Assembly: GCA_022563455.1 (NCBI GenBank)
Contig: JADFNI010000020.1
Coordinates: 1-18,221 of the forward strand
Reading direction: 5' to 3'
Length of the DNA stretch: 18,221 nucleotides
DNA from: Nanobdellota archaeon
GTDB lineage: Archaea > Nanobdellota > Nanobdellia > Pacearchaeales > GW2011-AR1
In this document: positions 4,567 to 17,721 of the stretch, one piece after another
How the letters are laid out: every line of letters starts with the position of its first letter
Numbering within the stretch: the stretch's first letter is position 1
Notes under the pieces: model-generated
Databases searched by the model: none
Seen by the model: only the letters and a program-made list of their open reading frames with translations
What the model was told of the DNA's origin: nothing
Program-made: the position numbers and the translations under genes

Positions 4567-4716
4567 TCACTTCAACAATTTTTTAAAGTTTTTATCTAAA
4601 TTTTCTTTCAATATATTTTCCAATTCCTTATTCACCTTCACACCTTTTAATTTACAATAAGCTACAAACTTTCTCCATAATTCTTCATCAAGATCTTTAA
4701 TTAATTTATGTCCCAT
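4567..4716 (-). CDS. Unlisted 49-aa ORF, putative ribbon-helix-helix (Arc/CopG-like) DNA-binding protein
   Basis: My own translation of the minus strand gives MGHKLIKDLDEELWRKFVAYCKLKGVKVNKELENILKENLDKNFKKLLK followed by a TGA stop (4567-4569). The ATG at 4714-4716 lies inside the last codons of the 1741-aa gene (16-nt overlap). It shows the RHH pattern: a short N-terminal beta-strand (KLIKDL), then helix DEELWRKFVAYCKLKG, a turn, and helix NKELENILKENL. It is below the length cutoff of the ORF track. Confidence 0.55.
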   Translation of the reverse strand: MGHKLIKDLDEELWRKFVAYCKLKGVKVNKELENILKENLDKNFKKLLK

Positions 4717-7700
4717 TTCTTCCAGACCTTAAATTTAATTCCAACAAAAACAAAGATAATAATTAAAGCAACAATGATCCAAATAATCCCTAACGTCCAT
4801 TTCTTCTTTTCTCCCTCAATTATCTCCTCTTCATCCAATCCACCAATCCCACCACCCGTAACATTCCCACTTGTTTCAACATTTCCCTTACCCTCAGGAA
4901 TCTCTTCATGAATACTCTTAATTGTTAGATTGGCCTTTTCATTTTCAATTGAATTCAACAAAACATAAATATCATAAAAGCTGTCATTCAAAACATCTAA
5001 TTTTGCATCCTCACCAACACTCAATATTATTTGAATAGGATCACTTGTGATATTTATTGTCGCTGTTGTATCAGTCAAATCGATAATACCTACATAATGA
5101 ATTTCATCACTAACAGAAATCTTGATCCTTTGCTTTTTACTTAATTCTTTAACATATCCTTGTTCTTGTTTGAATTCCTCATCACTAACAACAAAAGTAT
5201 TACTCCAAAAACTAGGTGTTCCAGAAGGACTTCCATCGCCACTGTCTCCAGAAGGAGCAGTTACAGGAGCAGTTACAGTAAAACTTCTAGAACTTGAATT
5301 TCCTAAATTAAGCAAAGCATCTGTACAATTAACATTCCAAGTATAAGTTGCGGGAGTAAATGTTTGTGTAAAGTTTTGGTTTACATCCTTAGTTATTGAA
5401 GAATTTGTTAAACTTATACTTCCATCAATAATTAAACTACAATTAGTTATATCAGAAACATCTGTAACATTATAAGAAAAAATAATTTCCTGTGAATTTG
5501 ATGTATAGCTTTGGCTGTTTGCAGGACTTATCAGAGTTACATTCGGAGAATCAAAATCAGAAGTAATGTTGATAAAAAATACTGTGGAGTTCAAATTTCC
5601 TAGAGTATCATTTACAGAAATATTTAGCCAGTAAATAGTCATTGTGGATAAGTTTGTTATGTTAGTTATCAATCCTGTTTGTGAAACATTAAACACACTC
5701 GTATCATTTAATGAATATGTATCTATTTCGACTGCTGAATCTGTTGCAGTAAAGTTTTGTGAAAAGGAATCATTAATATTAACTGTAAAATTTCTTGGAT
5801 TGTCAAATACAGGAGAAGTAGTATCAATAGTGAATAAAGTTAAGTTTTGCCCTTCATTTCCAGCTGAATCATTTGCCCAAATAGTTACGTTATGCAATCC
5901 TTCACTCCAGGTTAAAGTTGTGATGTTTATCCCGCACGAGATTGAAGTATTGACAGAATAAGTATCATTAGAATACCAACAAGAATCTAAGAAAGTATCT
6001 GTTGCAGTATAATTTATATCTAATCCAGTATCAGTTGTGTTTGTATGGTTCAATGTTAACATGTTCACCACAGGAATTGTAATATCAATCGTAAAATCAA
6101 TACTTGAAGAATTTTCATTCCCTACTGAATCATTTGCCCACACAGTTATATTATGAAAGCCCTCACTCCAGGTTAAAGTTGTTATATTTGTTCCACAAGT
6201 AATTGTAGTATTAACAGAATAAGTATCGTTTGAATACCAGCAAGAATCTAATCCTACCAAGGAATCTGAAACAGTATAATTTATATCCAATCCAGTATCC
6301 GAAGAGTTAGCATTATTAACAGGACTTACAATCGAAACATTAGGAGGAGTAGTGTCAATTGTGAATGTCCTTATGCTGGAATTTTGGACGTTTGTTTCAT
6401 TGTCTGTTGCTTCTATTCTCCAAATATATGTTCCATCGCCAAAACCAGTAAGGTCTTTTGTGAATATATATTCAGAATTATTTAACCCGCTTGTATTCGT
6501 TTCATTTATCACAAAACTTCCAGTCCAATCTCCCCATAAACTAACATTAGTCAAATTAGAATTATCTGAAACAGTTGTATTAAATGTAATTGAATAAGAA
6601 CTAAAGTTAGCATTATCGACGGGAGAATTCAAAGTTACATTTGGTCTCTCAAGGTCAGCAGAAGTCGTGAAGCTCTGAACAGTAGAAAAATTCCCCGCCT
6701 TCAGCCCAGTGTCAATCGTCTGAACACTCCAATAATATGTCGTTGAAGGCTCAAGCCTATCTACTTTTAAAGTGAAGTTCTTCCGTTGCATCATGTTTCC
6801 AAAGTAGCCAAATGCAGTTCCACCCCTCGTAGCATCTCCACTTCCCCCATAAATTCCAGAAATAATTGAATGATTATTTGATGCTGTTCCTAACTTCAAA
6901 TTATAATACAAACCATTTACTGAAGTTTCATTATCACTTCCGTTAAGCCACCCTAAAGACATTTCTCTATTGTTGTAAGAACTTGAAAAACTCGTTGGAG
7001 GTGTTGGCGCAACATTGGGTGTTGTAATATTATTTATATAAACTTTTTGGCTTTTTATTGAAACTAAATCCAAATCTCCATCATTGTCTATATCTCCCCA
7101 AAGTACAGAACCTTTTCTTACTCCTGTTAAATTTGCTTCAGCTGTTCCATCTCTTGCAAAAACTGAACCATTATTTTCTCCAATTTCTATTTGGTCATCT
7201 CCAGCATTAATTAAATCTAAATAACCATTATTGTCATAATCCCCCATCATCATGGAACCCCATCCAATATTACTAAGGTCAAAATTCCATGATGATGATT
7301 CATCCACAAATTGATCTACGCTACTTATTTTATTTATGAAATATCTTGGAATTGATGTCCCAGAAACAATTTGATCCAAATCACCATCATTATCAATATC
7401 TCCCCATACAACGTTGGCTTCATCTTTGGGGCCGATAGTCCAATTTGGATAACGCACAAAAGCAGTCCCATTATTTTTATAACTATAGGAAGTACTTGCC
7501 CCATGTACATTTAAATCCAAATCACCATCATTGTCTAGATCTATCAAACCCGTTGAAATTTTGCCTCCACTATCAATCTCATCACTCCAGATTAAATCCC
7601 CTACAAAACTTGTTCCGTTATTAATATAAACAGATGCCTTGGTAGATCCCATATCAGGAAATAATATATCCAAATCTCCATCGCCATCTATATCTCCTAG

Positions 7701-9926
7701 TGCAACTGAATCAGAACCAACATCATCCAATACACCTTCATTTTGCCATGTTAGATTCTCTAAAAAAGTTGTTCCATTATTAATATAAACTCCAAAATTA
7801 ATTCCAACACCCCCTCCGGCAAATATCATGTCTAAATCACCATCGTTATCTATATCCCCAAGAGCAATAGAACCTGTGCCTACTCCCGATAAATTCTGCT
7901 CCCAAGTTATATTTTCAACAAAAGAAGTCCCATTATTGATCCAAACATAACTTTTATCTGCAACAGAGCATACGGAAGAACCAGAATCACAACCAATACT
8001 AATCATATCCAAATCTCCATCGCCATCTATATCCCCTAGTACAGCCCCATTATGATAATTAGAGGCTGTTAGATTACTCTGCCATTGCGGACTTTCAATC
8101 AAACCCACAATTAAATCTGTAGTAAAAGTCCTAGTGCTTGAATTTTGACAATTGGTAGAATTATCGCAAGCTTCTATGTACCACTGGAACGATTGTTTCC
8201 TGTTTATTGTTTCTGTAAATATGTAATAAGTATTATTTAATCCAGAAGTGTTTATTTGTTTTCTACTCCAAACTCCATCTTTCCAATCCCCCCATAAACT
8301 AACATTAGTCAAATTCAAGTTATCCGAAACAGTAACATTAAACGTGACTGTATATGAACTCAAGTTCGCATTATCTACGGGAGAATTCAAAGTTACATTT
8401 GGTCTATCTAAATCCGCTGAAGTTGTAAAACTTTGAGCCGTTGACCAGTTTCCAGCTTTTAGCCCAGTATCAATCGTCTGAACACTCCAATAATATGTTG
8501 TACTTGGTTTCAGTCTATCAACTTTTAAAGTAAAATTCTTTCTCTGCATCATGTTTCCAAAATATCCAAATGCTGTTCCTCCACGTGTAGCATCTCCACT
8601 CCCTCCATAAATTCCACTTATGATACTATGATTATTTGATGCTGTTCCTAACTTCAAATTATAATACAAACCATTTACTGAAGTTTCATTATCACTTCCA
8701 TTAAGCCACCCCAAAGCCATTTCCCTATTGTTGTAAGAACTTGAAAAACTCGTTGGGGGTGTTGGCGCAACATTGGGTGTTGTAATATTATTTATATAAA
8801 CTTTTTGGCTTTTTATTGAAACTAAATCCAAATCTCCATCATTGTCTATATCTCCCCAAAGTACAGAACCTTTTCTTACTCCTGTTAAATTTGCTTCAGC
8901 TGTTACATCTCTTACAAAAGTTGTTCCGTTATTTTCTCCGATTTGTATTTGATCGCTTCCACTCAATCCTGCATTTACTAAATCCAAATAGCCATTATTA
9001 TCATAATCTCCCAGCATCATAGAACCCCATATAATAAAAGACATTTCTGTTTCCCAAGGAGATCCATCTAAAAATGTACTCCCATTATTTACTAAAACTC
9101 TAAAACGAGATCCCCTAGATACAACATTATCAAAATCGCCATCATTCTCAAGATCTCCCCATGCTACATTTACTTCATCACCACCTGAGGCAGTCCAAGT
9201 AGGGGTGTAAATAAAACTCGTTCCATTATTAATATAAGTTTTAGCAGAGTCTACTCCTGCTATATTCAAATCCAAATCTCCATCATTATCAAAATCTATT
9301 AATCCTGTTGAAATTTTACCACCTCCATTTGTAATCTCTTGACCCCATATTGTACTATTTACAAAAGTTGTGCCATTGTTAATCCAAACCACCCTATTTG
9401 GAATTCCCATATCAGGAAATAATAAATCTAAATCCCCGTCTCCATCTATATCCCCAAAAGTAATAGATTTAGAATCTGCAAGAGTAGTTGAATTCATTAA
9501 CAAACTTTCCCAAGTTAAATTTTCCTGAAATGAAGTTCCATTATTAATATAAATTCTAGTTCCAATCCAAGAAAGTGCCAAATCTAAATCTCCATCATTG
9601 TCTATATCACCCAATGCTATGGATCCTGCCGCATTTGACAAATTTTGTTCCCATGTTATATTTTCCACAAAACTAGTTCCATTATTAATCCAAACATAAC
9701 TTTTATCAGCATCACTTGAAGTACAAACACTTTCAGTACACCCGATACTAATCATATCTAGATCTCCATCTCCATCCACATCTCCAAGAACTGCAGAATT
9801 AGCACTAACTGAACCTGTTAAATTCCCTTGCCAAGTTTCATTCTCAATCAATCCAACATTACTAGCACTAACAAACCAAAAAAACATTAAACAAAATACC
9901 AAACAAATCAACAAACTCTTTTTCAT
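4701..9926 (-). CDS. Giant (1741 aa) anchored adhesin-like protein: signal peptide, 2 x [seven-bladed FG-GAP/VCBS propeller + FN3-like + Ig-like], further Ig-like modules, membrane-proximal beta-domain, C-terminal TM
   Basis: Signal peptide MKKSLLICLVFCLMFFWFVSAS. I count 14 Ca-binding-type motifs (e.g. GDIDNDGDLDL, GDVDGDGDLDM, GDYDNNGYLDL) arranged 7+7. FN3-like segments end in STTYYWSVQTIDTGLKAGN. Repeated modules start P-N-V-[ST]-L-x-SP-x-N. The C-terminus is WTLGIIWIIVALIIIFVFVGI followed by KFKVWKKW. N-X-S/T sequons are dense throughout. Confidence 0.9.
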   Translation of the reverse strand: MKKSLLICLVFCLMFFWFVSASNVGLIENETWQGNLTGSVSANSAVLGDVDGDGDLDMISIGCTESVCTSSDADKSYVWINNGTSFVENITWEQNLSNAAGSIALGDIDNDGDLDLALSWIGTRIYINNGTSFQENLTWESLLMNSTTLADSKSITFGDIDGDGDLDLLFPDMGIPNRVVWINNGTTFVNSTIWGQEITNGGGKISTGLIDFDNDGDLDLNIAGVDSAKTYINNGTSFIYTPTWTASGGDEVNVAWGDLENDGDFDNVVSRGSRFRVLVNNGSTFLDGSPWETEMSFIIWGSMMLGDYDNNGYLDLVNAGLSGSDQIQIGENNGTTFVRDVTAEANLTGVRKGSVLWGDIDNDGDLDLVSIKSQKVYINNITTPNVAPTPPTSFSSSYNNREMALGWLNGSDNETSVNGLYYNLKLGTASNNHSIISGIYGGSGDATRGGTAFGYFGNMMQRKNFTLKVDRLKPSTTYYWSVQTIDTGLKAGNWSTAQSFTTSADLDRPNVTLNSPVDNANLSSYTVTFNVTVSDNLNLTNVSLWGDWKDGVWSRKQINTSGLNNTYYIFTETINRKQSFQWYIEACDNSTNCQNSSTRTFTTDLIVGLIESPQWQSNLTASNYHNGAVLGDIDGDGDLDMISIGCDSGSSVCSVADKSYVWINNGTSFVENITWEQNLSGVGTGSIALGDIDNDGDLDMIFAGGGVGINFGVYINNGTTFLENLTWQNEGVLDDVGSDSVALGDIDGDGDLDILFPDMGSTKASVYINNGTSFVGDLIWSDEIDSGGKISTGLIDLDNDGDLDLNVHGASTSYSYKNNGTAFVRYPNWTIGPKDEANVVWGDIDNDGDLDQIVSGTSIPRYFINKISSVDQFVDESSSWNFDLSNIGWGSMMMGDYDNNGYLDLINAGDDQIEIGENNGSVFARDGTAEANLTGVRKGSVLWGDIDNDGDLDLVSIKSQKVYINNITTPNVAPTPPTSFSSSYNNREMSLGWLNGSDNETSVNGLYYNLKLGTASNNHSIISGIYGGSGDATRGGTAFGYFGNMMQRKNFTLKVDRLEPSTTYYWSVQTIDTGLKAGNFSTVQSFTTSADLERPNVTLNSPVDNANFSSYSITFNTTVSDNSNLTNVSLWGDWTGSFVINETNTSGLNNSEYIFTKDLTGFGDGTYIWRIEATDNETNVQNSSIRTFTIDTTPPNVSIVSPVNNANSSDTGLDINYTVSDSLVGLDSCWYSNDTYSVNTTITCGTNITTLTWSEGFHNITVWANDSVGNENSSSIDFTIDITIPVVNMLTLNHTNTTDTGLDINYTATDTFLDSCWYSNDTYSVNTSISCGINITTLTWSEGLHNVTIWANDSAGNEGQNLTLFTIDTTSPVFDNPRNFTVNINDSFSQNFTATDSAVEIDTYSLNDTSVFNVSQTGLITNITNLSTMTIYWLNISVNDTLGNLNSTVFFINITSDFDSPNVTLISPANSQSYTSNSQEIIFSYNVTDVSDITNCSLIIDGSISLTNSSITKDVNQNFTQTFTPATYTWNVNCTDALLNLGNSSSRSFTVTAPVTAPSGDSGDGSPSGTPSFWSNTFVVSDEEFKQEQGYVKELSKKQRIKISVSDEIHYVGIIDLTDTTATINITSDPIQIILSVGEDAKLDVLNDSFYDIYVLLNSIENEKANLTIKSIHEEIPEGKGNVETSGNVTGGGIGGLDEEEIIEGEKKKWTLGIIWIIVALIIIFVFVGIKFKVWKKWDIN
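5825..6353 (-). repeat. Two tandem ~261-bp (about 87-aa) Ig-like modules inside the giant gene
   Basis: CACTCCAGGTTAAAGTTG occurs at 5903 and 6164 (offset 261). The proteins are DTGLDINYTVSDSLVGLDSCWYSNDTYSVNTTITCGTNITTLTWSEGFHNITVWANDSVGNE and DTGLDINYTATDTFLDSCWYSNDTYSVNTSISCGINITTLTWSEGLHNVTIWANDSAGNE. Confidence 0.85.
6347..9863 (-). repeat. Intragenic tandem duplication, 2 x 1758 bp (586 aa: propeller + FN3-like + Ig-like)
   Basis: GTTGGCGCAACATTGGGTG occurs at 7003 and 8761 (offset 1758, in frame). The two protein halves are collinear. DNA identity is patchy: 6871-7146 vs 8629-8904 differ at only 5 of 276 positions by my hand alignment, while flanking segments differ at many mostly synonymous sites. 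Confidence 0.9.
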
Positions 9927-9947
9927 ACTTCATCAACGAGAAATTCC

Positions 9948-9955
9948 TTTTTATA
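9948..9955 (-). promoter_or_regulatory. TATA box-like TATAAAAA 22-29 nt upstream of the ATG at 9926
   Basis: Minus strand reads TAATTATAAAAAGGAATTTCTCGTTGATGAAGTATG, immediately after the TAA of the upstream gene. No SD is present. Confidence 0.4.
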
Positions 9956-9956
9956 A

Positions 9957-11222
9957 TTAATGCCCTACCAACTTCAATTTTGTCTTAGACCTATTGAAAA
10001 CTACAACAATTAGAGTTATACAAAGCATTGTAAACATTAAAACTAATTGATTCCCGGACAATATATTACTTCCAATCCCCAACACCGCTCCAGTTATTCC
10101 CGCCGTTGAGGGAAATATTTCTCCTAATTTATTCAAATTGATGGAAGGGTCGTCATTTTGTTCTTCCACTTTTACTTGCCCTATATTTTCTTGTCCATAG
10201 TTTGTCCAGGTTACTTCCCCATCTACAATAGGATCTATTTCAATACTTCTTGTTATATTATAATTCCCATCTGCTAAACTAGGTCTTAAATCAACAGTGA
10301 ATGTTACAGTTCCATTATTTGGTCCTAGAGTTTCTGCAACCAAAGGCAGACAATAAGGAGATTCTGCTCTATTTGTGCCTGTTCCTTTATCCTGATTGTA
10401 ACATTGAGTTTTATTAACATCTGTAAACCAGAAAAACATTCTTAGAGGTAATAATTCTCCACTAGCATAACCTGCTTTGAAAGGTATATCGATGGTATAG
10501 TTTAAAGTAATGTTAGATGTGCTGTTTAAAGTATTACTAATAAAAGTTTCCTGAGTTATAACGCCAGTATCTGTTCTAGAAATTCTTTTCCAAGTATTAT
10601 TCCATAAATCATAAGCATCACAATTTCCATTTATAACACAGTCATATAATTCTTCAAGCCAGCCGTGTTCTTCAGGTGTTAAAGAATCTTCTGCTTGCAT
10701 AGAAATTTCAATTGTTTTATCACTATCCGCAACAATATTTTGTGTTTTATCAAAATACCCTATTAGGTCTGAAAAAGTACATTCCCATGTCCCTGCAGCA
10801 AAACTATCAGCAGGAATTGAAGTATAAGGATTTTCAACATTTGCATCACTAAAACCATTATCACAAGAAACATCAAAACTTTTTTGACCACTTGTGTCTA
10901 TCTGCAACCCACCAAAACTATCAGTCAAATTGAAAGTAATCGTCCAATTAGCATACTGAAACTGCCTTGTTACAGACCAATCACTGGCTAAGACAGAATC
11001 ATTCGCCCTTACACGCCAGTAATAATCATCATCTGTTGTTGTGTAATCTGAAAGAGTAATATTGATTGAGGTGGGATCTGTTCCTTCTGCTATTGAAGTA
11101 TTACTATGAACTAAGTTTGCTGCTGCCATGTCACTTTCATTATAAATTTCTAAATCATAAGTTATAGTATCTCCATCAATATCTATAGAATTATTCCATG
11201 AAAAAGTTATTGTTGAATTCAT
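9957..11222 (-). CDS. C-terminal portion of a split surface protein: FN3-like module, beta-rich domains, C-terminal TM anchor. Lacks its own signal peptide (421 aa as tracked)
   Basis: It begins mid-module (MNSTITFSWNNSIDIDGDTITYDLEIY...DYYWRVRANDSVLASDWS). The reading frame stays open for 18 more codons upstream (APPTIPVLSAPANNSNFA), up to the TAA at 11277-11279 that ends the 442-aa ORF in the same frame. The C-terminus is LVLMFTMLCITLIVVVF followed by NRSKTKLKLVGH. Confidence 0.7.
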   Translation of the reverse strand: MNSTITFSWNNSIDIDGDTITYDLEIYNESDMAAANLVHSNTSIAEGTDPTSINITLSDYTTTDDDYYWRVRANDSVLASDWSVTRQFQYANWTITFNLTDSFGGLQIDTSGQKSFDVSCDNGFSDANVENPYTSIPADSFAAGTWECTFSDLIGYFDKTQNIVADSDKTIEISMQAEDSLTPEEHGWLEELYDCVINGNCDAYDLWNNTWKRISRTDTGVITQETFISNTLNSTSNITLNYTIDIPFKAGYASGELLPLRMFFWFTDVNKTQCYNQDKGTGTNRAESPYCLPLVAETLGPNNGTVTFTVDLRPSLADGNYNITRSIEIDPIVDGEVTWTNYGQENIGQVKVEEQNDDPSINLNKLGEIFPSTAGITGAVLGIGSNILSGNQLVLMFTMLCITLIVVVFNRSKTKLKLVGH

Positions 11223-11276
11223 TGCAAAATTTGAATTGTTTGCAGGAGCTGATAGTACTGGGATTGTTGGAGGGGC

Positions 11277-12605
11277 TTAAAAAACATCTCTATAAGTTAT
11301 TCCTTCCCCGCAGTTATACAAATCGCTAATCTCTGAAGTCGTTAAACTTCTATTCCAAAATCCAACTTCATCCAAACTTCCATCAAAAAACCTATTAATT
11401 GTCCCAGCAAAATTAAAGGCTCCAAGAGTTAAAGAATCCCCAAGAGTAATAAAATTGCTAGGAGTTGATTGAGCTGCATAATCTGTAGTATATAAAATCC
11501 CATCCACATGAAAAGTTATATTATTATCAGCAGGAGTCATTGTCACAGCAACATGATGCCAATTACCATCTCTCCAAGTATTGTTTGGTGCTCCAAAGTC
11601 TCCTGACAGACCATTTCCGCTTCCGTCCCAGTAAAAAAACATTATTGTTCCGTTTTCATGTCCTGTTGTTTTTTGAGCATTTAAGAATATCCCCATCCTA
11701 GGATTTCCCCCACTTACTTCTTTTCCCCATGGTGTTGGTTGTGTTCCTGCCTCTTGAATTGTATTTAACCAAAAACTAATAGTAAATCCAGAACCAATAT
11801 CTGTTCCAATATCTAACATATCTGTTAAATTCACATAATCTGAATCTCCTGCTGTAAAATTAAAAGAAGCATTTATGATTCCTGTTTGTCCCCTTGCTGC
11901 TCCATTATTGGAACCAGTAATATTTCCTGTAGCATCTATGACATTTCCAGAAGTTCCATTTAATCTATAATATGCTATTATGTCTGTATTCATACTCTCA
12001 GTCCATTCTGCCCATTCGTTAACTTCAACGCCCAATAAAGTTGGAACCCATTCAACTCTTTCATTAGGTAACACATCTGTAAAAATTCCAATAATTGTTT
12101 TGCCAGAAGGGATAGTCCCAAGAGAGTTTAAATCATTCCATTCAAACATTTCTTCTTGATGCGTTCCTATTAAAACTTGTGAGCAGTCTCGTAAAATTGT
12201 CCCATTACTTGAAATTTCCCCATCAACACAAACCGTTTTATAATCATTCACTGTTTCAAATCCTAAACTATTTCTATATTTATAATTAAATTGTCTATCA
12301 AATCTTTTCATACTATTTTTAACATCATAAAAATCAAGTTTCTCTAAAACAGAAGAAATTGGTTGAGAAGAAAGTTTATTATCTATTGTAAATTCTGCAA
12401 CTTTCCTGTCTTTTCCACGTATAACATTAAAGACCAAAGGAGTATTAAGTGTTATATCTGAAATAACATTTCCAGATGAATCTTTAATTGTAACAACTTT
12501 ATTGACGCTGTCATATTCTTTTGTATTATGCGTTGCAGCAGATAAAAAGAAAAACGTACTAATTAATATAAAAACAAAAAATATAATAATTAAACTCTTT
12601 TTCAT
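11277..12605 (-). CDS. Secreted LamG/concanavalin-A-like lectin domain protein (442 aa); probably the N-terminal half of a longer anchored protein
   Basis: Signal peptide MKKSLIIIFFVFILISTFFFLSA. The C-terminal ~230 aa fit the Laminin_G_3 pattern (FTISFWLN...WHHVAVTM...FFDGSLDEVGFWNRSLTTSEISDLYN). It has no C-terminal anchor, unlike its neighbours. Confidence 0.85.
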   Translation of the reverse strand: MKKSLIIIFFVFILISTFFFLSAATHNTKEYDSVNKVVTIKDSSGNVISDITLNTPLVFNVIRGKDRKVAEFTIDNKLSSQPISSVLEKLDFYDVKNSMKRFDRQFNYKYRNSLGFETVNDYKTVCVDGEISSNGTILRDCSQVLIGTHQEEMFEWNDLNSLGTIPSGKTIIGIFTDVLPNERVEWVPTLLGVEVNEWAEWTESMNTDIIAYYRLNGTSGNVIDATGNITGSNNGAARGQTGIINASFNFTAGDSDYVNLTDMLDIGTDIGSGFTISFWLNTIQEAGTQPTPWGKEVSGGNPRMGIFLNAQKTTGHENGTIMFFYWDGSGNGLSGDFGAPNNTWRDGNWHHVAVTMTPADNNITFHVDGILYTTDYAAQSTPSNFITLGDSLTLGAFNFAGTINRFFDGSLDEVGFWNRSLTTSEISDLYNCGEGITYRDVF

Positions 12606-12626
12606 AGATCTAGACTATAATAAGGG

Positions 12627-12634
12627 ATATATAA
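12627..12634 (-). promoter_or_regulatory. TATA box-like TTATATAT 22-29 nt upstream of the ATG at 12605
   Basis: Minus strand reads CTTATATATCCCTTATTATAGTCTAGATCTATG. No SD is present. It follows a 194-nt spacer with T-runs (TTTATTTTAAAAGTTTTG) that could terminate the upstream transcription unit. Confidence 0.4.
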
Positions 12635-12747
12635 GTCTTATTCCAAAAATGGTTGACAAAATAGGCAAAAAGGGATAAAATAAAACCATTCATTGTATTT
12701 TTTGCTTTCAAAACTTTTAAAATAAACTTATCTTTCCCCCAACCTAA

Positions 12748-12819
12748 ATCCAATCACTAAATCTCAAGCAGCTTCACCATAGGATCCAATCACTAAATCT
12801 TAAGCAGCCTCACCATAAG
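12748..12819. repeat. Tandem 36-bp direct repeat (33/36 identical) spanning the stop codon of the 202-aa gene
   Basis: 12748-12783 is ATCCAATCACTAAATCTCAAGCAGCTTCACCATAGG and 12784-12819 is ATCCAATCACTAAATCTTAAGCAGCCTCACCATAAG. On the coding strand each copy reads YGEAA-stop-DLVIG. The stops are TAA and then TGA, and the copies are in frame with each other. Confidence 0.9.
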
Positions 12820-13408
12820 ATATAGAGATAGTATCACTAAGTACTCCAATATTAGAATTATTAGGAATAATTAACGATAAATCTATAGTTATATTCTGTA
12901 AAGATTCAAAAACATCACATACTCTTTGGGAATCTGGAGAAGCATTAACTTCATAAAAAGTATCCAAACTAAAACCGCTAGGAGGAGAACAAATGTCTTT
13001 TCCACCGTCAGACACATTATACCTATATCCTGGAGAGCTCCCCCCAATAAAAGAACTAGCTGTTTTTCCAGAACTAACATTAATAGTTAAATTTTCATTC
13101 CCAAGATTGGTTATTAAAAAACGAGTAGTAGTAGCACTCCAATTCCCATTAATAACACTTCCAAGAGTGTCAATTGTAGCCGATACTTGTCCAAGATTAA
13201 CTGAGCCAGAACCAAAATTTATAGTGTCATCAGTAAAATTTAATAAAACCAGTGAAGAAATACTCAAATTAACAAACCCACTGTCAACCGCTTTTCCAGT
13301 AAACAAAATTTTATATTCTCCAATAGAGTTAAGTGCAAAAACCAAAGAGACTACTGAAAACAAAAACAGAGCCGTAGATCCAAGAACAAAATAATCATCC
13401 CGCTCCAT
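12800..13408 (-). CDS. Secreted beta-sandwich protein (202 aa) homologous to the C-terminal domain of the 550-aa protein; fimbrial/Ig-like signature
   Basis: I prefer the ATG at 13406-13408, which is preceded by GAGAGGGGTGAAA (SD-like); the track starts at a TTG. Signal/anchor FVLGSTALFLFSVVSLVFALNS. By eye it aligns to the 550-aa C-terminus: NFTDDTINFGSGSV vs VTDSMNFGLLAPSGS, RFLITNLGNENLTINVSSG vs PFVIRNDGTVMTNISINAS, and ITIDLSLIIPNNSNIGVLSDTISISY vs AEIDISILVPSNEGPGAKSSTIIFTS. Confidence 0.75.
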   Translation of the reverse strand: MERDDYFVLGSTALFLFSVVSLVFALNSIGEYKILFTGKAVDSGFVNLSISSLVLLNFTDDTINFGSGSVNLGQVSATIDTLGSVINGNWSATTTRFLITNLGNENLTINVSSGKTASSFIGGSSPGYRYNVSDGGKDICSPPSGFSLDTFYEVNASPDSQRVCDVFESLQNITIDLSLIIPNNSNIGVLSDTISISYGEAA

Positions 13409-13604
13409 TTTCACCCCTCTCAGTATATGGGACAATTTCTAAACTAATCTTCCCAACACTGTTAGCATTAGTCCCGCCGAAGTTTTCATTTCCATCATAA
13501 GATTCTCGAGCACTAGAAAGTGTAGACTCAATTGCAAAAGAAAAAAGCAACATCACAATCGCAACAACTAAAAAAATTACTGCAAGCCTCTGTTTTCTAT
13601 TCAT
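13395..13604 (-). CDS. Small (69 aa) single-pass membrane/secreted protein
   Basis: I prefer the ATG at 13602-13604, with GGAGGT 10 nt upstream; the track's TTG start lies inside that SD. MNRKQRLAVIFLVVAIVMLLFSFAIES is a hydrophobic helix after a basic N-terminus. The 3' end overlaps the next gene by 14 nt. Confidence 0.6.
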   Translation of the reverse strand: MNRKQRLAVIFLVVAIVMLLFSFAIESTLSSARESYDGNENFGGTNANSVGKISLEIVPYTERGENGAG

Positions 13605-13625
13605 CTCAAAAAAAACCTCCAAAAC

Positions 13626-13633
13626 TATATAAA
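13626..13633 (-). promoter_or_regulatory. TATA-like TTTATATA 22-29 nt upstream of the ATG at 13604
   Basis: It lies in the 33-nt spacer after the TGA of the 404-aa gene. The spacing matches the other candidate boxes, but an SD is also present here, so this may be coincidental. Confidence 0.25.
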
Positions 13634-13637
13634 TTCA

Positions 13638-14852
13638 TCATTTAAACCTCTTCCTAAGTTTAAGGAACCATAAAAGATTGATCAACACAAGTAAAACGAC
13701 GACAATTATAAGAACAACAATAATTGTATCAAGTTCTTCTCCAGAACCACTGTCCGAAATAACATATCCAAGACCAATAATTGTTAAGTCATTTTCACTT
13801 ACCTCGAATCGTAAATTATTATTACTTACTTTTCCAGCATAATTAATTGTCACATCAGCCTCGTAAGTTCCTTCCTTTACTCCAGCAGTATCCCAATAAG
13901 AAACAAAAACTTTTTTAGAAAGTGCTGCCACCTCATAACTTACAGACTCAAATGCCGAAACAATAATCCCATCATCATCCTTTATTTTTGTTTCTATGTA
14001 TGCTCCACTAATAGGTTCACTCCATTTATTTTCCACAAGCATCTCAAGCTTTGCAATCTCTCCAAGGCTAAAATCAGAAACTCTTATACTTTCAAGCTCA
14101 AGTTCCAAACTACCAACGCTAAATATCTTTTCTAAATTAATTGTTCCTTCATCATAAACAAGACTAGCAACAGCTCTGTACTCTCCGATTGCAACATCTG
14201 CCACCCAGTCATAAACAATTTCTCTCTTTTCACCAGAAGGAACCTCAATTGTACCAGTATTAAAAGAGCCAACAACTTCATCAAGCTTATTAAATATTTC
14301 AACATTTGCCCATACACTTGTTAAATCAAATTCCCCAGCACTAACAATAGGAAACACAAACCGAACAGCTTCTCCTTGATTAGCATTATAAATAATAAGG
14401 TCAGCATTTGCATATTTTCCAGGAAAAGGAACATAAACATAAATTTGAGTAACAACTGCAAGAGTCGCAAAAACTTGAGCCCCCGAAGATCCACTAGAAC
14501 TTGGCACTTGTAAAATAATTACTTCCCCAATATGAAGTCCAGGTTCCAAGTCCCCTGGTAAATTAAGAGTATAACTAAATTCTCTAGTTTTTATGTCTGA
14601 AGGAATTGAAGATTTCGATTCAGATATTTGAATATATTCTGCTAATTCTCCATCTGGAACCATAACAATATCTATATCTTTTTTATCCGAGTTAATAACT
14701 TCAAACTTAACTTCTCGCTCAAGGCCTGGCTCAAAGTCAATTGTCGTCCTAGCTGGAGTTACCCCAAGAGCACTAACACCTGACATCAATATAAGCATAA
14801 GAAATCCAAATCCAAAAATAAATAATTTTTTATTATTCATTTTATTATTCAT
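13638..14852 (-). CDS. Membrane-anchored surface protein with N-terminal Ig-like domain and CARDB-like repeats (404 aa); paralogue of 3391..4506
   Basis: I prefer the ATG at 14850-14852 (MNNKMNNKKLFIFGFGFLMLILMSGVSALG), with GGGAGG 7 nt upstream; it overlaps the stop of the upstream gene (ATGAATAA). The C-terminal TM is TIIVVLIIVVVLLVLINLLWFL followed by KLRKRFK. CARDB-like segments include GEIAKLEMLVENKWSEPISG...WDTAGVKEGTYEADVTINY. Confidence 0.85.
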   Translation of the reverse strand: MNNKMNNKKLFIFGFGFLMLILMSGVSALGVTPARTTIDFEPGLEREVKFEVINSDKKDIDIVMVPDGELAEYIQISESKSSIPSDIKTREFSYTLNLPGDLEPGLHIGEVIILQVPSSSGSSGAQVFATLAVVTQIYVYVPFPGKYANADLIIYNANQGEAVRFVFPIVSAGEFDLTSVWANVEIFNKLDEVVGSFNTGTIEVPSGEKREIVYDWVADVAIGEYRAVASLVYDEGTINLEKIFSVGSLELELESIRVSDFSLGEIAKLEMLVENKWSEPISGAYIETKIKDDDGIIVSAFESVSYEVAALSKKVFVSYWDTAGVKEGTYEADVTINYAGKVSNNNLRFEVSENDLTIIGLGYVISDSGSGEELDTIIVVLIIVVVLLVLINLLWFLKLRKRFK

Positions 14853-15333
14853 CTGACTGCCTCCCAACAAAACCAGTTCCATTTACTTCTCCTTCAATTA
14901 AAAGTTTAACAGTTTCAACCAAACTCGTTCCATTATAAACTTCAACATCAAGTACAACATTCCCAACATTAACAACGCTAAATTCATTAGAGGAATTTTC
15001 CCTAAGTCTAAGTTCTAAATTAACAACCGACTTAATAGTCAATGTCCTGATCTGGCTACTAGTAATCCCTACAGCCTTCCAGTAATATTTCCCAGGATCT
15101 AAATCAATCTTCAATCCATCCCTCATTAAATATTCTTGAGGACTACTAAATTCTATATTATCATCAATCAATAAAAATTCCGCTTTCTCAATTGAAAACA
15201 AAATCTCTGTCTCAGTTGTCTCAAGTTCATTCAATGGAGCAATGACAAGAGGTTGTACATAACCCCCAACAGCAAAAAGACTAAGAACAGTAATGACAAT
15301 TATTGCCGCATCAATCTTATAAATTTTATCCAA
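14845..15333 (-). CDS. N-terminally anchored/secreted beta-rich protein (~162 aa)
   Basis: The track ORF 14845..15432 overlaps the 550-aa gene by ~100 nt. I propose the TTG at 15331-15333, which overlaps that gene's TAA (ATTGGATAA) and has GAGGT 9 nt upstream. This gives MDKIYKIDAAIIVITVLSLFAVGGYV as signal/anchor. The body contains a module LIDDNIEFSSPQEYLMRDGLKIDLDPGKYYWKAVG. The exact start is uncertain. Confidence 0.6.
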   Translation of the reverse strand: MDKIYKIDAAIIVITVLSLFAVGGYVQPLVIAPLNELETTETEILFSIEKAEFLLIDDNIEFSSPQEYLMRDGLKIDLDPGKYYWKAVGITSSQIRTLTIKSVVNLELRLRENSSNEFSVVNVGNVVLDVEVYNGTSLVETVKLLIEGEVNGTGFVGRQSDE

Positions 15334-16978
15334 TTTCCGCCAACCTCGATGTAAATATAATAGTAGAACTCTTAGCTCCAGGACCCTCATTACTAGGAAC
15401 CAAAATAGATATATCAATTTCTGCAGAATCACTACTATCCGTATAATTTAATTCACTAATAGCGACAACGTCTCCAGTAATTGGAACATTGAAAAATTGT
15501 ATAATTGAATTAATCCAATTAAAAGAGTTTGGTTCGCTTGATACATTATCTACCTTAAATTGAAAAGAACTACTATTTTCAGATTGCGTAGTCCAAAGAG
15601 CACTAGCATTAATACTTATATTAGTCATAACAGTCCCATCATTTCTAATTACAAATGGTGATGGATTCTCATTAGTAGTATCATTCGATCCACTAGGTGC
15701 AAGCAAGCCAAAGTTCATAGAATCTGTAACAAGAGTGATTGTCGTATCTGCAGTAATATTAACTATAAAGTCTTCACTCCATGCCCCAAATCCGACAGAA
15801 TCATTAGCCCTAACTCTCCAAGTATAATAATATCCATTATCATGCAAACACAAAAGATCAACCGTTGGAACAAAACTAGTCCCCGTTAACAGTTCAAGTA
15901 AAGAGTCCGAGCAAATTTGTGATCCACTAAATTTATAATCAGTTATATTAATCTGATAATGTGAAACGTCAGAATCAGCATCTACCACAGACCAATTGAA
16001 TTCAGGAGTCCTATTTATAGTAGAAGATACATTAGCAGGACTAAGTAATGTAATAACTGGAAGCTGATTAAGGACAGATAAACTACTAGAATTCGCATAA
16101 GGTGTAGTATCTTGCTCATCAGTAAATCTAGCTTCACAAGTCCAATTCTCATAACGAGTAGTATTTCCAGACTCAAGAATTGCCAAAAGATTAGTTCCGT
16201 TAGTTTGAGAACTATAGTTAACACTTAAATTAAACGAATCGTTCAAATACCAATTAACTGTAACATTCAAAGCATCCCCGTCAGGGTCATCAATCAAAAT
16301 ATCACAAATTAAATTCTCTGAAGAAATATTTGCTCCACTAGATGTATTCAAGAAAGGCTGAGGCGTATTTGGAATTGTATTAAACTCTTCACTAGAATAA
16401 GTAGTAAAATGTGTAACATTAAATTTGTAAACATTAGTTACATTATCCCAAGATATATCCATACAAAGGTTAGCTGGACAGTCAACAAAAGTCCCATTAT
16501 CAAAATAATCTACAATAGATTCAGCAACAACTGGAGTTATAAGATCATTAAGAGTAATATTTGCAGTCGTATTAAAACCAATATCTTTAGTTGAATTAAT
16601 AAACACATTATTATCTGTTATTTGAATAACCTCAGACAAGTTAGATCCAGATGCGACAAGAGAACTATTAATAAATTCAACGGCTCCATAAGAATTATTT
16701 ATAACAAGACTGTTTTCACTAAAGTCGTAATTATAAATGGTCGAATTATATAAAAGATAATCAAGGTTAGCCCCCGTAATATTAATTCTTGAAAAGTTTA
16801 TCTCTTCTGAATTATTTATGAAAATAGAAATATTAGAAAATCCAGTAATATTAATATCCTTAAAAGTAACATTGCTAGAAATATTAGAAGAATCAGCACC
16901 AAGATCTATAACATAATCTGAATTTGAATCTATAGTTATATTTTCAAATAGACTATCAGTCATACCTTGAATGAACAA
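15326..16978 (-). CDS. Surface protein fragment: parallel beta-helix (PbH1-like) repeats, DGD-containing beta-sandwich, FN3-like module, C-terminal fimbrial/Ig-like domain. The 5' end appears truncated
   Basis: The tracked start is a TTG with no signal peptide. The frame stays open upstream to 17080, and coding-like sequence (LNIKSTINISLTNASKN) runs to ~17025 with no ATG. Beta-helix-type repeats include NITIDSNSDYVIDLG, NVTFKDINITGFSNISIFINNS and INFSRINITGAN. The FN3-like module is LLSPANVSSTINRTPEFNWSVVDADSDVSHYQINI...YYYTWRVRANDSVGFGAWS. Confidence 0.75.
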   Translation of the reverse strand: MFIQGMTDSLFENITIDSNSDYVIDLGADSSNISSNVTFKDINITGFSNISIFINNSEEINFSRINITGANLDYLLYNSTIYNYDFSENSLVINNSYGAVEFINSSLVASGSNLSEVIQITDNNVFINSTKDIGFNTTANITLNDLITPVVAESIVDYFDNGTFVDCPANLCMDISWDNVTNVYKFNVTHFTTYSSEEFNTIPNTPQPFLNTSSGANISSENLICDILIDDPDGDALNVTVNWYLNDSFNLSVNYSSQTNGTNLLAILESGNTTRYENWTCEARFTDEQDTTPYANSSSLSVLNQLPVITLLSPANVSSTINRTPEFNWSVVDADSDVSHYQINITDYKFSGSQICSDSLLELLTGTSFVPTVDLLCLHDNGYYYTWRVRANDSVGFGAWSEDFIVNITADTTITLVTDSMNFGLLAPSGSNDTTNENPSPFVIRNDGTVMTNISINASALWTTQSENSSSFQFKVDNVSSEPNSFNWINSIIQFFNVPITGDVVAISELNYTDSSDSAEIDISILVPSNEGPGAKSSTIIFTSRLAEIG

Positions 16979-17030
16979 ATTTTTCGAGGCATTTGTTAAA
17001 CTAATATTAATAGTACTTTTTATATTTAAC

Positions 17031-17055
17031 CCTCGTAAATCGAGGTTTTTTTTTT
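17031..17055 (+). terminator. Hairpin (CCTCG-TAAAT-CGAGG) followed by T10: intrinsic-terminator-like element on the plus strand
   Basis: Read directly. The stem is only 5 bp, but it is followed immediately by ten T. No plus-strand gene lies upstream of it in this window. It sits exactly where the minus-strand surface-protein ORF loses coding character. Confidence 0.35.
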
Positions 17056-17076
17056 GCTTCCATAAAAGAATATCAG

Positions 17077-17721
17077 ATGATTACAAAAACATCTCAACAT
17101 ATAATAAATACTTTTGAAGAAGAGGATATACTCCCGCTTATTTGTGCCGCTGCTGCTCTAAGAGATGGAAAATATCTTAGAGCCTTAATTGAAAGAGCAA
17201 AATTGATTGGTGTAAAAGAAAAACCGTTGTATGAATCTCTGCTGCAGAATTATCTTTTTACAGGTTATCCATCCGCAATGATTTCATTAAAAATATTAAA
17301 AGAGTATTGCCCAAAATTCGAAAATTATTCATATGAAAGCTGGGATCTAAATAAATACAGACAAAGGGGTACAAAGAATTGCAAAAAGATTTACGGTAGA
17401 AAATTTGAAAATCTTATTTCGAATGTTAAAAGTTTTTCACCGGAATTATCCGACTGGCTGTTGCTTGAGGGTTATGGTAAGGTACTGGGCAGGAAGGGGC
17501 TTTCACTAAAGAAGAGGGAATTGAACAACGTTTCGGTACTAACAGTATTAACGTTTGAGGATCAGTTATTCTCACATATCAACGGGGCATTCAGAACAAA
17601 ATCAACAATTGATCAAATTAAAAAAGTAATTACTAATCTTAAAATATTTGGGAAAGCAGGCTTAAGCAGATTTGGGATGAGAGTGTTAAACAAGTATTTA
17701 AAACAGAAGGGAATAGGATAA
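17077..17721 (+). CDS. Carboxymuconolactone decarboxylase (CMD/AhpD-like) family protein (214 aa)
   Basis: GYGKVLGRKGLSLKKRELNNVSVLTVLTFEDQLFSHINGAFRTKSTIDQIKKVI fits the CMD-domain core (G-x-v-x-x-R-x-g-L-x-x-k-x-RE-l ... L-x-x-H-x-x-gA). It is cytoplasmic in style and has far fewer N-X-S/T sequons than the array (about three by eye). Confidence 0.6.
   Translation: MITKTSQHIINTFEEEDILPLICAAAALRDGKYLRALIERAKLIGVKEKPLYESLLQNYLFTGYPSAMISLKILKEYCPKFENYSYESWDLNKYRQRGTKNCKKIYGRKFENLISNVKSFSPELSDWLLLEGYGKVLGRKGLSLKKRELNNVSVLTVLTFEDQLFSHINGAFRTKSTIDQIKKVITNLKIFGKAGLSRFGMRVLNKYLKQKGIG

Follow-up and report, generated by a model that had tools for sequence, protein, structure and literature searches.

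Positions 9957–12605 on the minus strand of an 18,221-nt stretch of contig JADFNI010000020.1, the whole of which is referred to here as the window, are one ancestral gene for a surface protein of approximately 882 aa from a DPANN-type (Pacearchaeota-like) archaeon. The gene is divided into two open reading frames (ORFs) by a single in-frame TAA, and this premature TAA is probably a recent nonsense allele. The protein is a member of an uncharacterised family of LamG-bearing DPANN archaeal surface proteins. Its proposed full-length form comprises a signal peptide, an N-module, a LamG head, a short Pro/Thr linker, an FN3-like module, a stalk of immunoglobulin (Ig)-like and β-sandwich domains and a C-terminal anchor, and it is probably N-glycosylated.

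The upstream ORF (11277–12605) encodes 442 aa and ends in TAA, as does the downstream ORF (9957–11222), which encodes 421 aa. A sequence-only reading of the window had described these ORFs as sharing a frame, with one TAA between them, and this was borne out: a translation in one frame from 12605 to 9957 yields 883 codons with one internal stop, i.e. open stretches of 442 codons (12605 to 11280) and 439 codons (11276 to 9960) whose sole separator is the TAA at 11279 to 11277. The DNA around the stop is GAT GTT TTT TAA GCC CCT CCA ACA, within the coding-strand stretch ...GGAATAACTTATAGAGATGTTTTTNAAGCCCCTCCAACAATCCC. The protein sequence reads ...GEGITYRDVF, stop, APPTIPVLSAPANNSNFAMNSTITFSW..., the peptide after the DVF-stop being APPTIPVLSAPANNSNFAMNSTITFSWNNSIDIDGDTITYDLEIYNESDMAAANLVHSNTSIAEGTDPTSINITLSDYTTTDDDYYWR; the residues after the TAA are APPTIPVLSAPANNSNFA, followed by MNSTITFSW.... 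Given that a stop is expected at 8.1% of codons from the base composition of the strand, 439 open codons would occur by chance with a probability of ~8.5e-17, and the run after the stop is therefore regarded as coding sequence. No ORF of more than 59 aa was found on the opposite strand across 9900–12700, and both halves match one protein family (best match E 2.6e-262). The parts of the gene are listed below; homologous proteins are numbered with P, and related contigs or loci with L.

12606–12702, minus strand: upstream region of the gene, conserved with L007 (window 12511–12702 is 95.8% identical to L007 2662–2471).
12525–12605, minus strand: start codon and signal peptide, aa 1–27 (MKKSLIIIFFVFILISTFFFLSAATHN), identified by hydropathy; L007 ORF2 has the same first 31 residues.
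11991–12524, minus strand: family N-module, aa 28–205 (...VIRGKDRKVAEFTI...EWAEWTES), which aligns with P0001–P0015 and has 80.6% nt identity to L001.
11325–11849, minus strand: LamG (concanavalin-A-like) head domain, aa 253–427, complete (PF13385, Laminin_G_3).
11277–11279, minus strand: premature in-frame TAA in the LamG–FN3 linker, 15 codons past the end of LamG and 2 codons ahead of the conserved FN3 block.
11223–11276, minus strand: 18 sense codons (APPTIPVLSAPANNSNFA) from the stop to the first ATG; the FN3-like module starts in them, with the first β-strand of the structural model.
11220–11222, minus strand: first ATG past the stop; Met stands in the same column in P0001, P0002, P0004–P0007 and L003.
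10947–11270, minus strand: FN3-like β-sandwich module; the strands of the model lie within residues 7–91, and homology to L007 ORF2 (97.75% nt) and P0023 starts exactly at 11270 (CCAACAATCCCAGTA...).
10128–10946, minus strand: stalk, consisting of a second Ig-like domain, a helical hairpin (EEHGWLEELYDC...) and a C-terminal β-sandwich, from the AlphaFold model and the family alignment.
9957–10064, minus strand: transmembrane anchor, basic tail (NRSKTKLKLVGH) and the genuine terminator TAA (9957–9959); hydropathy places the anchor at residues 405–431 and the model has a helix at 408–438.

Homologues were sought with the fused sequence. Of the 87 that were found, the shortest has 503 aa, none is split at the junction and none is a stand-alone half of approximately 420–440 aa. 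The close homologues are single proteins of approximately 850–1160 aa that span both halves with the parts in the same order: the signal peptide, N-module and LamG come first, followed often by one or two additional Ig-like inserts, and then by the FN3-like module, stalk and anchor. Counted together, >20 homologues are single proteins of 850–1200 aa with this order, and P0001–P0010 and P0015 encode both pieces without interruption. The proposal that the two ORFs are halves of one protein of approximately 880 aa is upheld by these results; orthologues encoding two separate genes, which would have spoken against it, were not observed. The only named homologue, P0006 (MBR9705026.1, ‘LamG domain-containing protein [Candidatus Pacearchaeota archaeon]’), is collinear over its full length, with 48% identity over 49% of the query by BLASTP and 45% in the multiple alignment. 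The related loci are in cellular archaeal genomes, beside genes for ribosomal proteins, SecY, FtsZ and STT3. Among them, L003 is a positional orthologue, with a single 864-aa ORF and an FG-GAP gene next to it, as in the window.

In four relatives LamG is fused directly to the FN3 module, as it is in the window, and the junction is uninterrupted in all four: P0003 (...GITYTNVFQKPPTTPVQSFPANNSNFAIGS...), P0007 (...GITYSINNPPSIPTQLEPENASGFAMNS...), P0023 (...FSYPFVVSIAPTIPVLSAPANNSNFAMNS...) and the 864-aa ORF of L003 (...GTFYSENRPPSTPTLLSPGNNSGFGMNS...). The codon aligned to the stop is CAA (Gln) in L001/P0003 (GTT TTT CAA AAA CCA CCA ACA) and TCT (Ser) in L007/P0023 (GTT GTT TCT ATT GCT CCA ACA), as compared with GTT TTT TAA GCC CCT CCA ACA in the window; the stop column of the other two direct LamG–FN3 linkers is ambiguous or unresolved. 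A single C→T transition converts CAA to TAA. The alignment of orthologues thus gave a sense codon in a fused ORF wherever the column could be read.

The LamG match of the upstream half (E 1.8e-18; 67.6 bits, against a gathering cut-off of 27.6) covers profile positions 2–151 of 151, and the only hydrophobic stretch of this half is the signal peptide at residues 1–27; it has no anchor. The N-module (aa 28–205) had no match in a Pfam search. A TATA-like box (TTATATAT) is situated at 12627–12634, 22–29 nt before the ATG of the upstream ORF, and is conserved. No Shine–Dalgarno motif was seen upstream of the 442-aa ORF; from this, the mRNA of the split gene would probably be leaderless.

The downstream half has the complementary properties. 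A single hydrophobic stretch was found in it, at residues 405–431 of 439, followed by the basic tail and by a genuine terminator in the context TAA TTA TAA; none was found at its N-terminus. The AlphaFold model of the 439-aa downstream half (21-sequence alignment; mean predicted local distance difference test score 75.8) is all-β, and its stalk consists of strands at residues 113–193, helices at 201–232 and strands at 240–383. The best Foldseek matches of the stalk in the PDB are tandem FN3 arrays (E ~1e-5), with template-modelling (TM) scores of ~0.2–0.3 that reflect multi-domain geometry, and Pfam gave only sub-threshold Ig-like matches for the stalk (SusE and Ig_Rha78A_N) and the neighbouring proteins. 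There are 17 NxS/T sequons in this half, which are relevant only if the domain is exported. The view that each half supplies what the other lacks was confirmed as to signal peptide and anchor; the accompanying generalisation, that every other large protein in the window has both, was not, since the 550-aa ORF has neither, and the 285-aa and 211-aa ORFs show, by eye, no anchor-like C-terminal hydrophobic stretch.

The sequence-only reading had also placed the start of the downstream module before its first ATG, and two results agree with this. In a BLASTP comparison with the module of the 550-aa ORF, the alignment begins 3 residues after the stop (E 9e-08), and the AlphaFold model has a β-strand at residues 7–9, before Met19. 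In the 54 nt ahead of the ATG at 11222 there is no GGAG, GAGG or GGTG motif and no TATA-like box. From the alignment, this ATG is a family-conserved internal Met rather than a dedicated start codon.

Over the 148 codons that could be compared with L007, the ratio of nonsynonymous to synonymous substitution rates is 0.11 (7 synonymous and 3 nonsynonymous changes), and no second stop or frameshift was found in the 439 codons after the TAA. That this half is still intact suggests that the lesion is probably recent; judged from the codons themselves, it would be either recent or not real. What is expected of a gene interrupted by a nonsense codon was found here in each testable respect: uninterrupted homologues, a sense codon one substitution away, and a downstream piece without a start, export signal or complete fold of its own.

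The following course of events is proposed. The linker codon would have become TAA, most likely by one C→T change in a CAA (Gln) codon, which is what the nearest relative of the head cassette has at this position. Translation would stop at the TAA and release a 442-aa exported protein, consisting of the N-module and LamG, that lacks an anchor. The following 439 codons, with no promoter-like or Shine–Dalgarno-like motif and no signal peptide, would not be translated usefully, and any product begun at the ATG at 11222 would miss the first β-strand of the FN3-like module and remain in the cytoplasm. The stalk and anchor would no longer be made, while their coding sequence would not yet have decayed. 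The setting would be a hypervariable locus that exchanges head cassettes between strains, where loss-of-function or truncated alleles are to be expected.

An anchor-less sub-family of approximately 540 aa was also observed among the homologues (P0012, P0017, P0020, P0022, P0024 and P0027; loci L009–L013). Its members end in ...C(I/V)INGxGCA directly before the stop codon, and an FG-GAP gene begins 33–62 nt downstream. The exact product of P0022 is present on 11 contigs, and the ~540-aa anchor-less form is therefore taken to be a stable natural short form. By analogy with these members, an unanchored head may not be useless; the ~540-aa proteins, however, retain an Ig-like domain, which the 442-aa product lacks.

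The variability of the locus became evident from the nearest relative, L007, a 4.4-kb contig (ENA ERZ27267501) whose ORF2 is continuous over the junction up to the end of the contig. The upstream region and first 95 nt of the gene are 95.8–98.9% identical in nucleotide sequence between L007 and the window, and the 31-residue N-terminus is identical; in the stalk, window 10826–11270 is 97.75% identical (145 of 148 aa). The head of L007 ORF2 (aa 32–483) is unrelated to that of the window and contains DUF2341 (PF10102, E 2.8e-15). Homology to L007 resumes at CCAACAATCCCAGTA, 6 nt past the TAA of the window, in a block that is also present in P0023, and the stop is consequently placed at the 3′ edge of a variable head cassette. 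From this comparison, position 11270 is taken as the 3′ recombination boundary of the cassette. The swap of heads (window 11271–12510 versus L007 2663–4016) resembles an allelic replacement between conserved flanks. Two further features belong to this locus:

11271–12510, minus strand: strain-variable head cassette, aa 32–445 including the stop, without a counterpart in L007 ORF2 by blastn and BLASTP.
12748–12819, no strand assigned: 36-nt tandem direct repeat (D11), 92% identical, in which the final codons of the neighbouring 202/211-aa gene are repeated together with its stop and 16 nt.

Upstream, both L007 and L008 contain an additional LamG gene of 668 aa (P0023) that is absent from the window. 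The 36-nt duplication is situated where these two contigs carry the P0023 gene, and where contigs L014, L015 and L016 end, and it is probably a recombination or deletion scar. These last three contigs, which come from other assemblies, are 100% identical to window 12784–17012 (4,229 nt), and all of them stop at 12784. The sister contigs of the window go back to SRR12886461, SAMN16252679 / ERZ23499104 and ERZ27267501. At 17012 the window diverges from them; there, the 550-aa gene extends further upstream (758 to >802 aa, into the LamG C-terminal motif). The 550-aa ORF of the window (15326–17012), in which no signal peptide was found hidden behind a stop, would accordingly be a 5′-truncated remnant of a longer gene, unless the contig is chimeric at 17012. 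Since the head has been swapped, a gene is present or absent, 36 nt have been duplicated and assemblies break at the edge, the locus is considered dynamic, and the surface-protein cluster appears to be a recombination-prone, strain-heterogeneous locus.

A different rearrangement was observed in L001 (8961–17145), where the LamG gene, which encodes P0003, is truncated to 666 aa and its FG-GAP neighbour lies in inverted orientation compared with the window. Tyrosine-recombinase (PF00589) genes at 8961–9431 and 15997–17145 flank the stretch, and a small GerE-family gene is situated between the LamG and FG-GAP genes. This arrangement may represent a recombinase-mediated rearrangement of the locus.

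The sequence-only reading had left three causes of the stop side by side. They can now be ranked: derived nonsense is strongly favoured, a base-call error retains a small share of the probability, and readthrough has gained no positive support. Several points nevertheless weigh against a recent nonsense allele. A substitution error in the consensus is possible, as no contig identical in this gene was found and the changed base lengthens a run of five T to six. An artefact or ongoing expression would account equally well for the intact, constrained downstream half. The codon regarded as ancestral is that of a relative only 55% identical overall, and P0023 has TCT, so that the path from CAA to TAA is plausible on the alignment. 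Lastly, the stop lies 6 nt from the recombination boundary and may have come with the cassette.

If the first of these points were correct, the gene would be intact (CAA, for instance), and the first base of the codon, T, would have been miscalled, mis-polished or drawn from a minor strain variant. One base change does restore the family architecture, the base is at the end of a T run, and the downstream half is intact and under purifying selection; moreover, consensus problems tend to concentrate in strain-heterogeneous loci such as this one, where other assemblies fragment. Homopolymer-associated errors are, however, usually indels rather than substitutions, and no other frameshift or premature stop was seen in the ORFs of the 18-kb window despite its many homopolymers. 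The identity of 4.2 kb of the window to three independent contigs likewise indicates a low error rate, and only 367 of the 7,938 possible substitutions in the gene (4.6%) create a stop. Because the quality of the window looks good, an isolated stop-creating consensus error is a priori rarer than a real variant. Exact look-ups of the 442-, 421-, 371- and 214-aa products of the window gave no match on record. Scans for the same gene yielded only a 40% relative in genome contigs and relatives of at best 59–62% in metagenome contigs, and the exact pattern over the junction was not found in viral contigs. Only the 202-aa neighbour is on record exactly, and none of its three contigs extends beyond the edge of the locus. 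On balance, a consensus or assembly error is considered unlikely.

The proximity of the stop to the cassette boundary raises the question of an imported TAA, i.e. the natural end of a donor LamG protein or a disrupted donor copy, placed in frame by recombination in the PTIPV linker or by a chimeric join. Apart from the interval of 6 nt to the point at which L007 homology resumes, the several recombination scars in the locus and the 5′ truncation of a second gene of the window at another breakpoint are in keeping with such an origin. No member of the family, however, ends after LamG: the cassette relatives P0003, P0008 and P0012 all continue past ...GITY.NVF. In addition, the two codons after the TAA (Ala-Pro) still match the linker pattern x-Pro-Pro-Thr. 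An imported stop is thus judged improbable.

Functional readthrough would give the TAA a role. Some ribosomes would decode or bypass a real TAA, such that one leaderless mRNA would yield a secreted 442-aa short form, the LamG head, together with an anchored full-length adhesin of 882 aa. The common frame, the single stop and the intact, constrained downstream half are as this explanation would have them, and the occurrence of anchored long and anchor-less short forms in the family makes two localisations plausible. The particulars of the stop are contrary to it. TAA is the normal and commonest terminator in the window, and the stop is not conserved, in that a sense codon, or at any rate no stop, stands there in each relative with a readable junction. 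Of the three stop codons, UAA leaks least, and a purine at +4 favours termination where release factor 1 is of the eukaryotic/archaeal type; the context here is UUU UAA G. There is no stable RNA structure after the stop: the fold of 151 nt (22 nt before the stop and 126 after) has a minimum free energy of –15.7 kcal/mol, against a mean of –18.0 for shuffled sequences (z = +0.75). No Rfam match and no tRNA was found in the window. Among the 12 papers listed of the 73 that matched a full-text literature search, judged by title and abstract, there was no precedent for programmed UAA readthrough in archaea. In short, a leaky stop or context, a stimulatory downstream structure and conservation of the stop, the marks of programmed readthrough, are each lacking, and the explanation is very improbable. 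Were it true, programmed UAA readthrough would be on record from an archaeon for the first time, and it would serve to set how much of the surface protein a DPANN episymbiont sheds relative to what it keeps anchored.

Fission into two functional genes, with the 421-aa ORF expressed by re-initiation at the ATG at 11222, is scarcely credible. That ATG is on the same transcript, 54 nt past the stop, and the ORF behind it is intact; the product would nevertheless lack a signal peptide and the first strand of the FN3-like domain, no Shine–Dalgarno or TATA-like motif precedes the ATG, and no such stand-alone gene is present in any relative. A reassigned code in which TAA is read as an amino acid, for which nothing speaks except the in-frame TAA itself, is effectively refuted by the use of TAA as a terminator across the ORFs of the window: it ends 9 other ORFs (the downstream half and the 1741-, 683- and 371-aa genes among them), directly follows the C-terminal anchor and basic tail in the 1741-aa and 421-aa proteins, and has no other in-frame occurrence in ~5,750 codons, in which CAA is used 86 times and no further in-frame stop of any kind is present. 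The earlier statement that the genome is not recoded is thereby sustained for TAA (10 of 13 ORFs) and TGA (3 of 13), but not in its claim that TAG also serves as a terminator (0 of 13). The absence of TAG was attributed to the G+C content of 30–36%. Frameshifting or slippage at GTT TTT TAA (the T6 run) was rejected, as the downstream ORF is in frame 0 and the –1 and +1 frames, inspected by hand, stop within ~20–30 codons.

By itself, a recent nonsense allele in this gene is of small weight, being another premature stop in a variable surface-protein gene, and its practical consequence is that the region should be annotated as one disrupted gene and not as two proteins. A real stop would mean that the strain now sheds, as a LamG protein, what had been an anchored adhesin-like protein, or that it has lost the protein, a change of the kind expected under selection by a host or virus. 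The context is more useful. Two near-identical backgrounds, with the same promoter, signal peptide and stalk, carry unrelated heads; they also differ in the presence of an adjacent gene, and assemblies break where the locus ends. These features point to a hot spot at which surface proteins of DPANN archaea diversify, and it is presumably by such proteins that these archaea attach to their hosts.

Some other features of the window were recorded. The neighbouring FG-GAP/VCBS-repeat surface protein of 1741 aa (4701–9926) contains an internal duplication of ~1.76 kb, in which one 48-nt unit is unchanged at a distance of 1,758 nt and a 300-nt stretch is 81% identical; the FG-GAP counterparts beside LamG genes are shorter (1,096 aa in L009, 1,113 aa in L011 and 1,172 aa in L001). 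Two 27-nt hairpin-like direct repeats (GCCCCCTTCTTCAACC.TTC.GGGGTA, 93% identical) are situated at 1164–1228, where 390 nt separate the 285-aa gene from the 683-aa gene; they had no match in Rfam and could be terminators or a small RNA. Terminator-like hairpins were seen at 17040–17062 (AAAAAAAAAACCTCGATTTACGAGGGTT), between the truncated 550-aa ORF and a divergent CMD-family gene, and at 1–30 (ATCCCGACTTTTGTCGGGAT), after the 285-aa gene. The 285-aa ORF was considered as another stop-split gene and rejected, because a second stop follows 4 codons on and no other frame continues.

Among known systems, the split gene most closely resembles nonsense-split genes and young pseudogenes of prokaryotes, especially those in variable surface-protein or receptor loci, with which it shares a derived stop, collinear pieces, a downstream piece without signals and the absence of further decay. 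Nothing essential differs from these; what is special is the location of the stop 6 nt from a cassette boundary, and a truncated product, with signal peptide and LamG, that is possibly still secreted. With programmed readthrough (Qβ A1 at UGA, murine leukaemia virus gag-pol at UAG with a pseudoknot, and tobamoviruses at UAG-CAR-YYA) and with archaeal selenocysteine and pyrrolysine decoding it has in common a single stop between functional-looking halves and, in principle, two isoforms. It differs from them in that the stop is UAA and is not conserved, there is no stimulatory context or structure, and no element resembling a selenocysteine or pyrrolysine insertion sequence (SECIS or PYLIS) and no special tRNA was found.

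The DPANN proteins with LamG (PF13385), such as P0006, have the same N-module, LamG, FN3-like module, stalk and anchor as the window gene. P0006 and most of the others are, in contrast, uninterrupted, in many of them LamG and FN3 are separated by one or two additional Ig-like inserts, and the ~540-aa sub-family lacks the anchor. The cassette itself recalls variation of the pilE/pilS type and the swapping of phage tail-fibre tips, in that conserved 5′ (96–99%) and 3′ (97.75%) flanks surround unrelated heads. Unlike in those systems, only two alleles were seen here, neither a silent donor cassette nor a recombinase is present within the window, and exchange of the cassette is deduced from comparison of sequences. 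This head-cassette exchange, together with the structural variation around it, is a more interesting by-product of the analysis than the stop codon.

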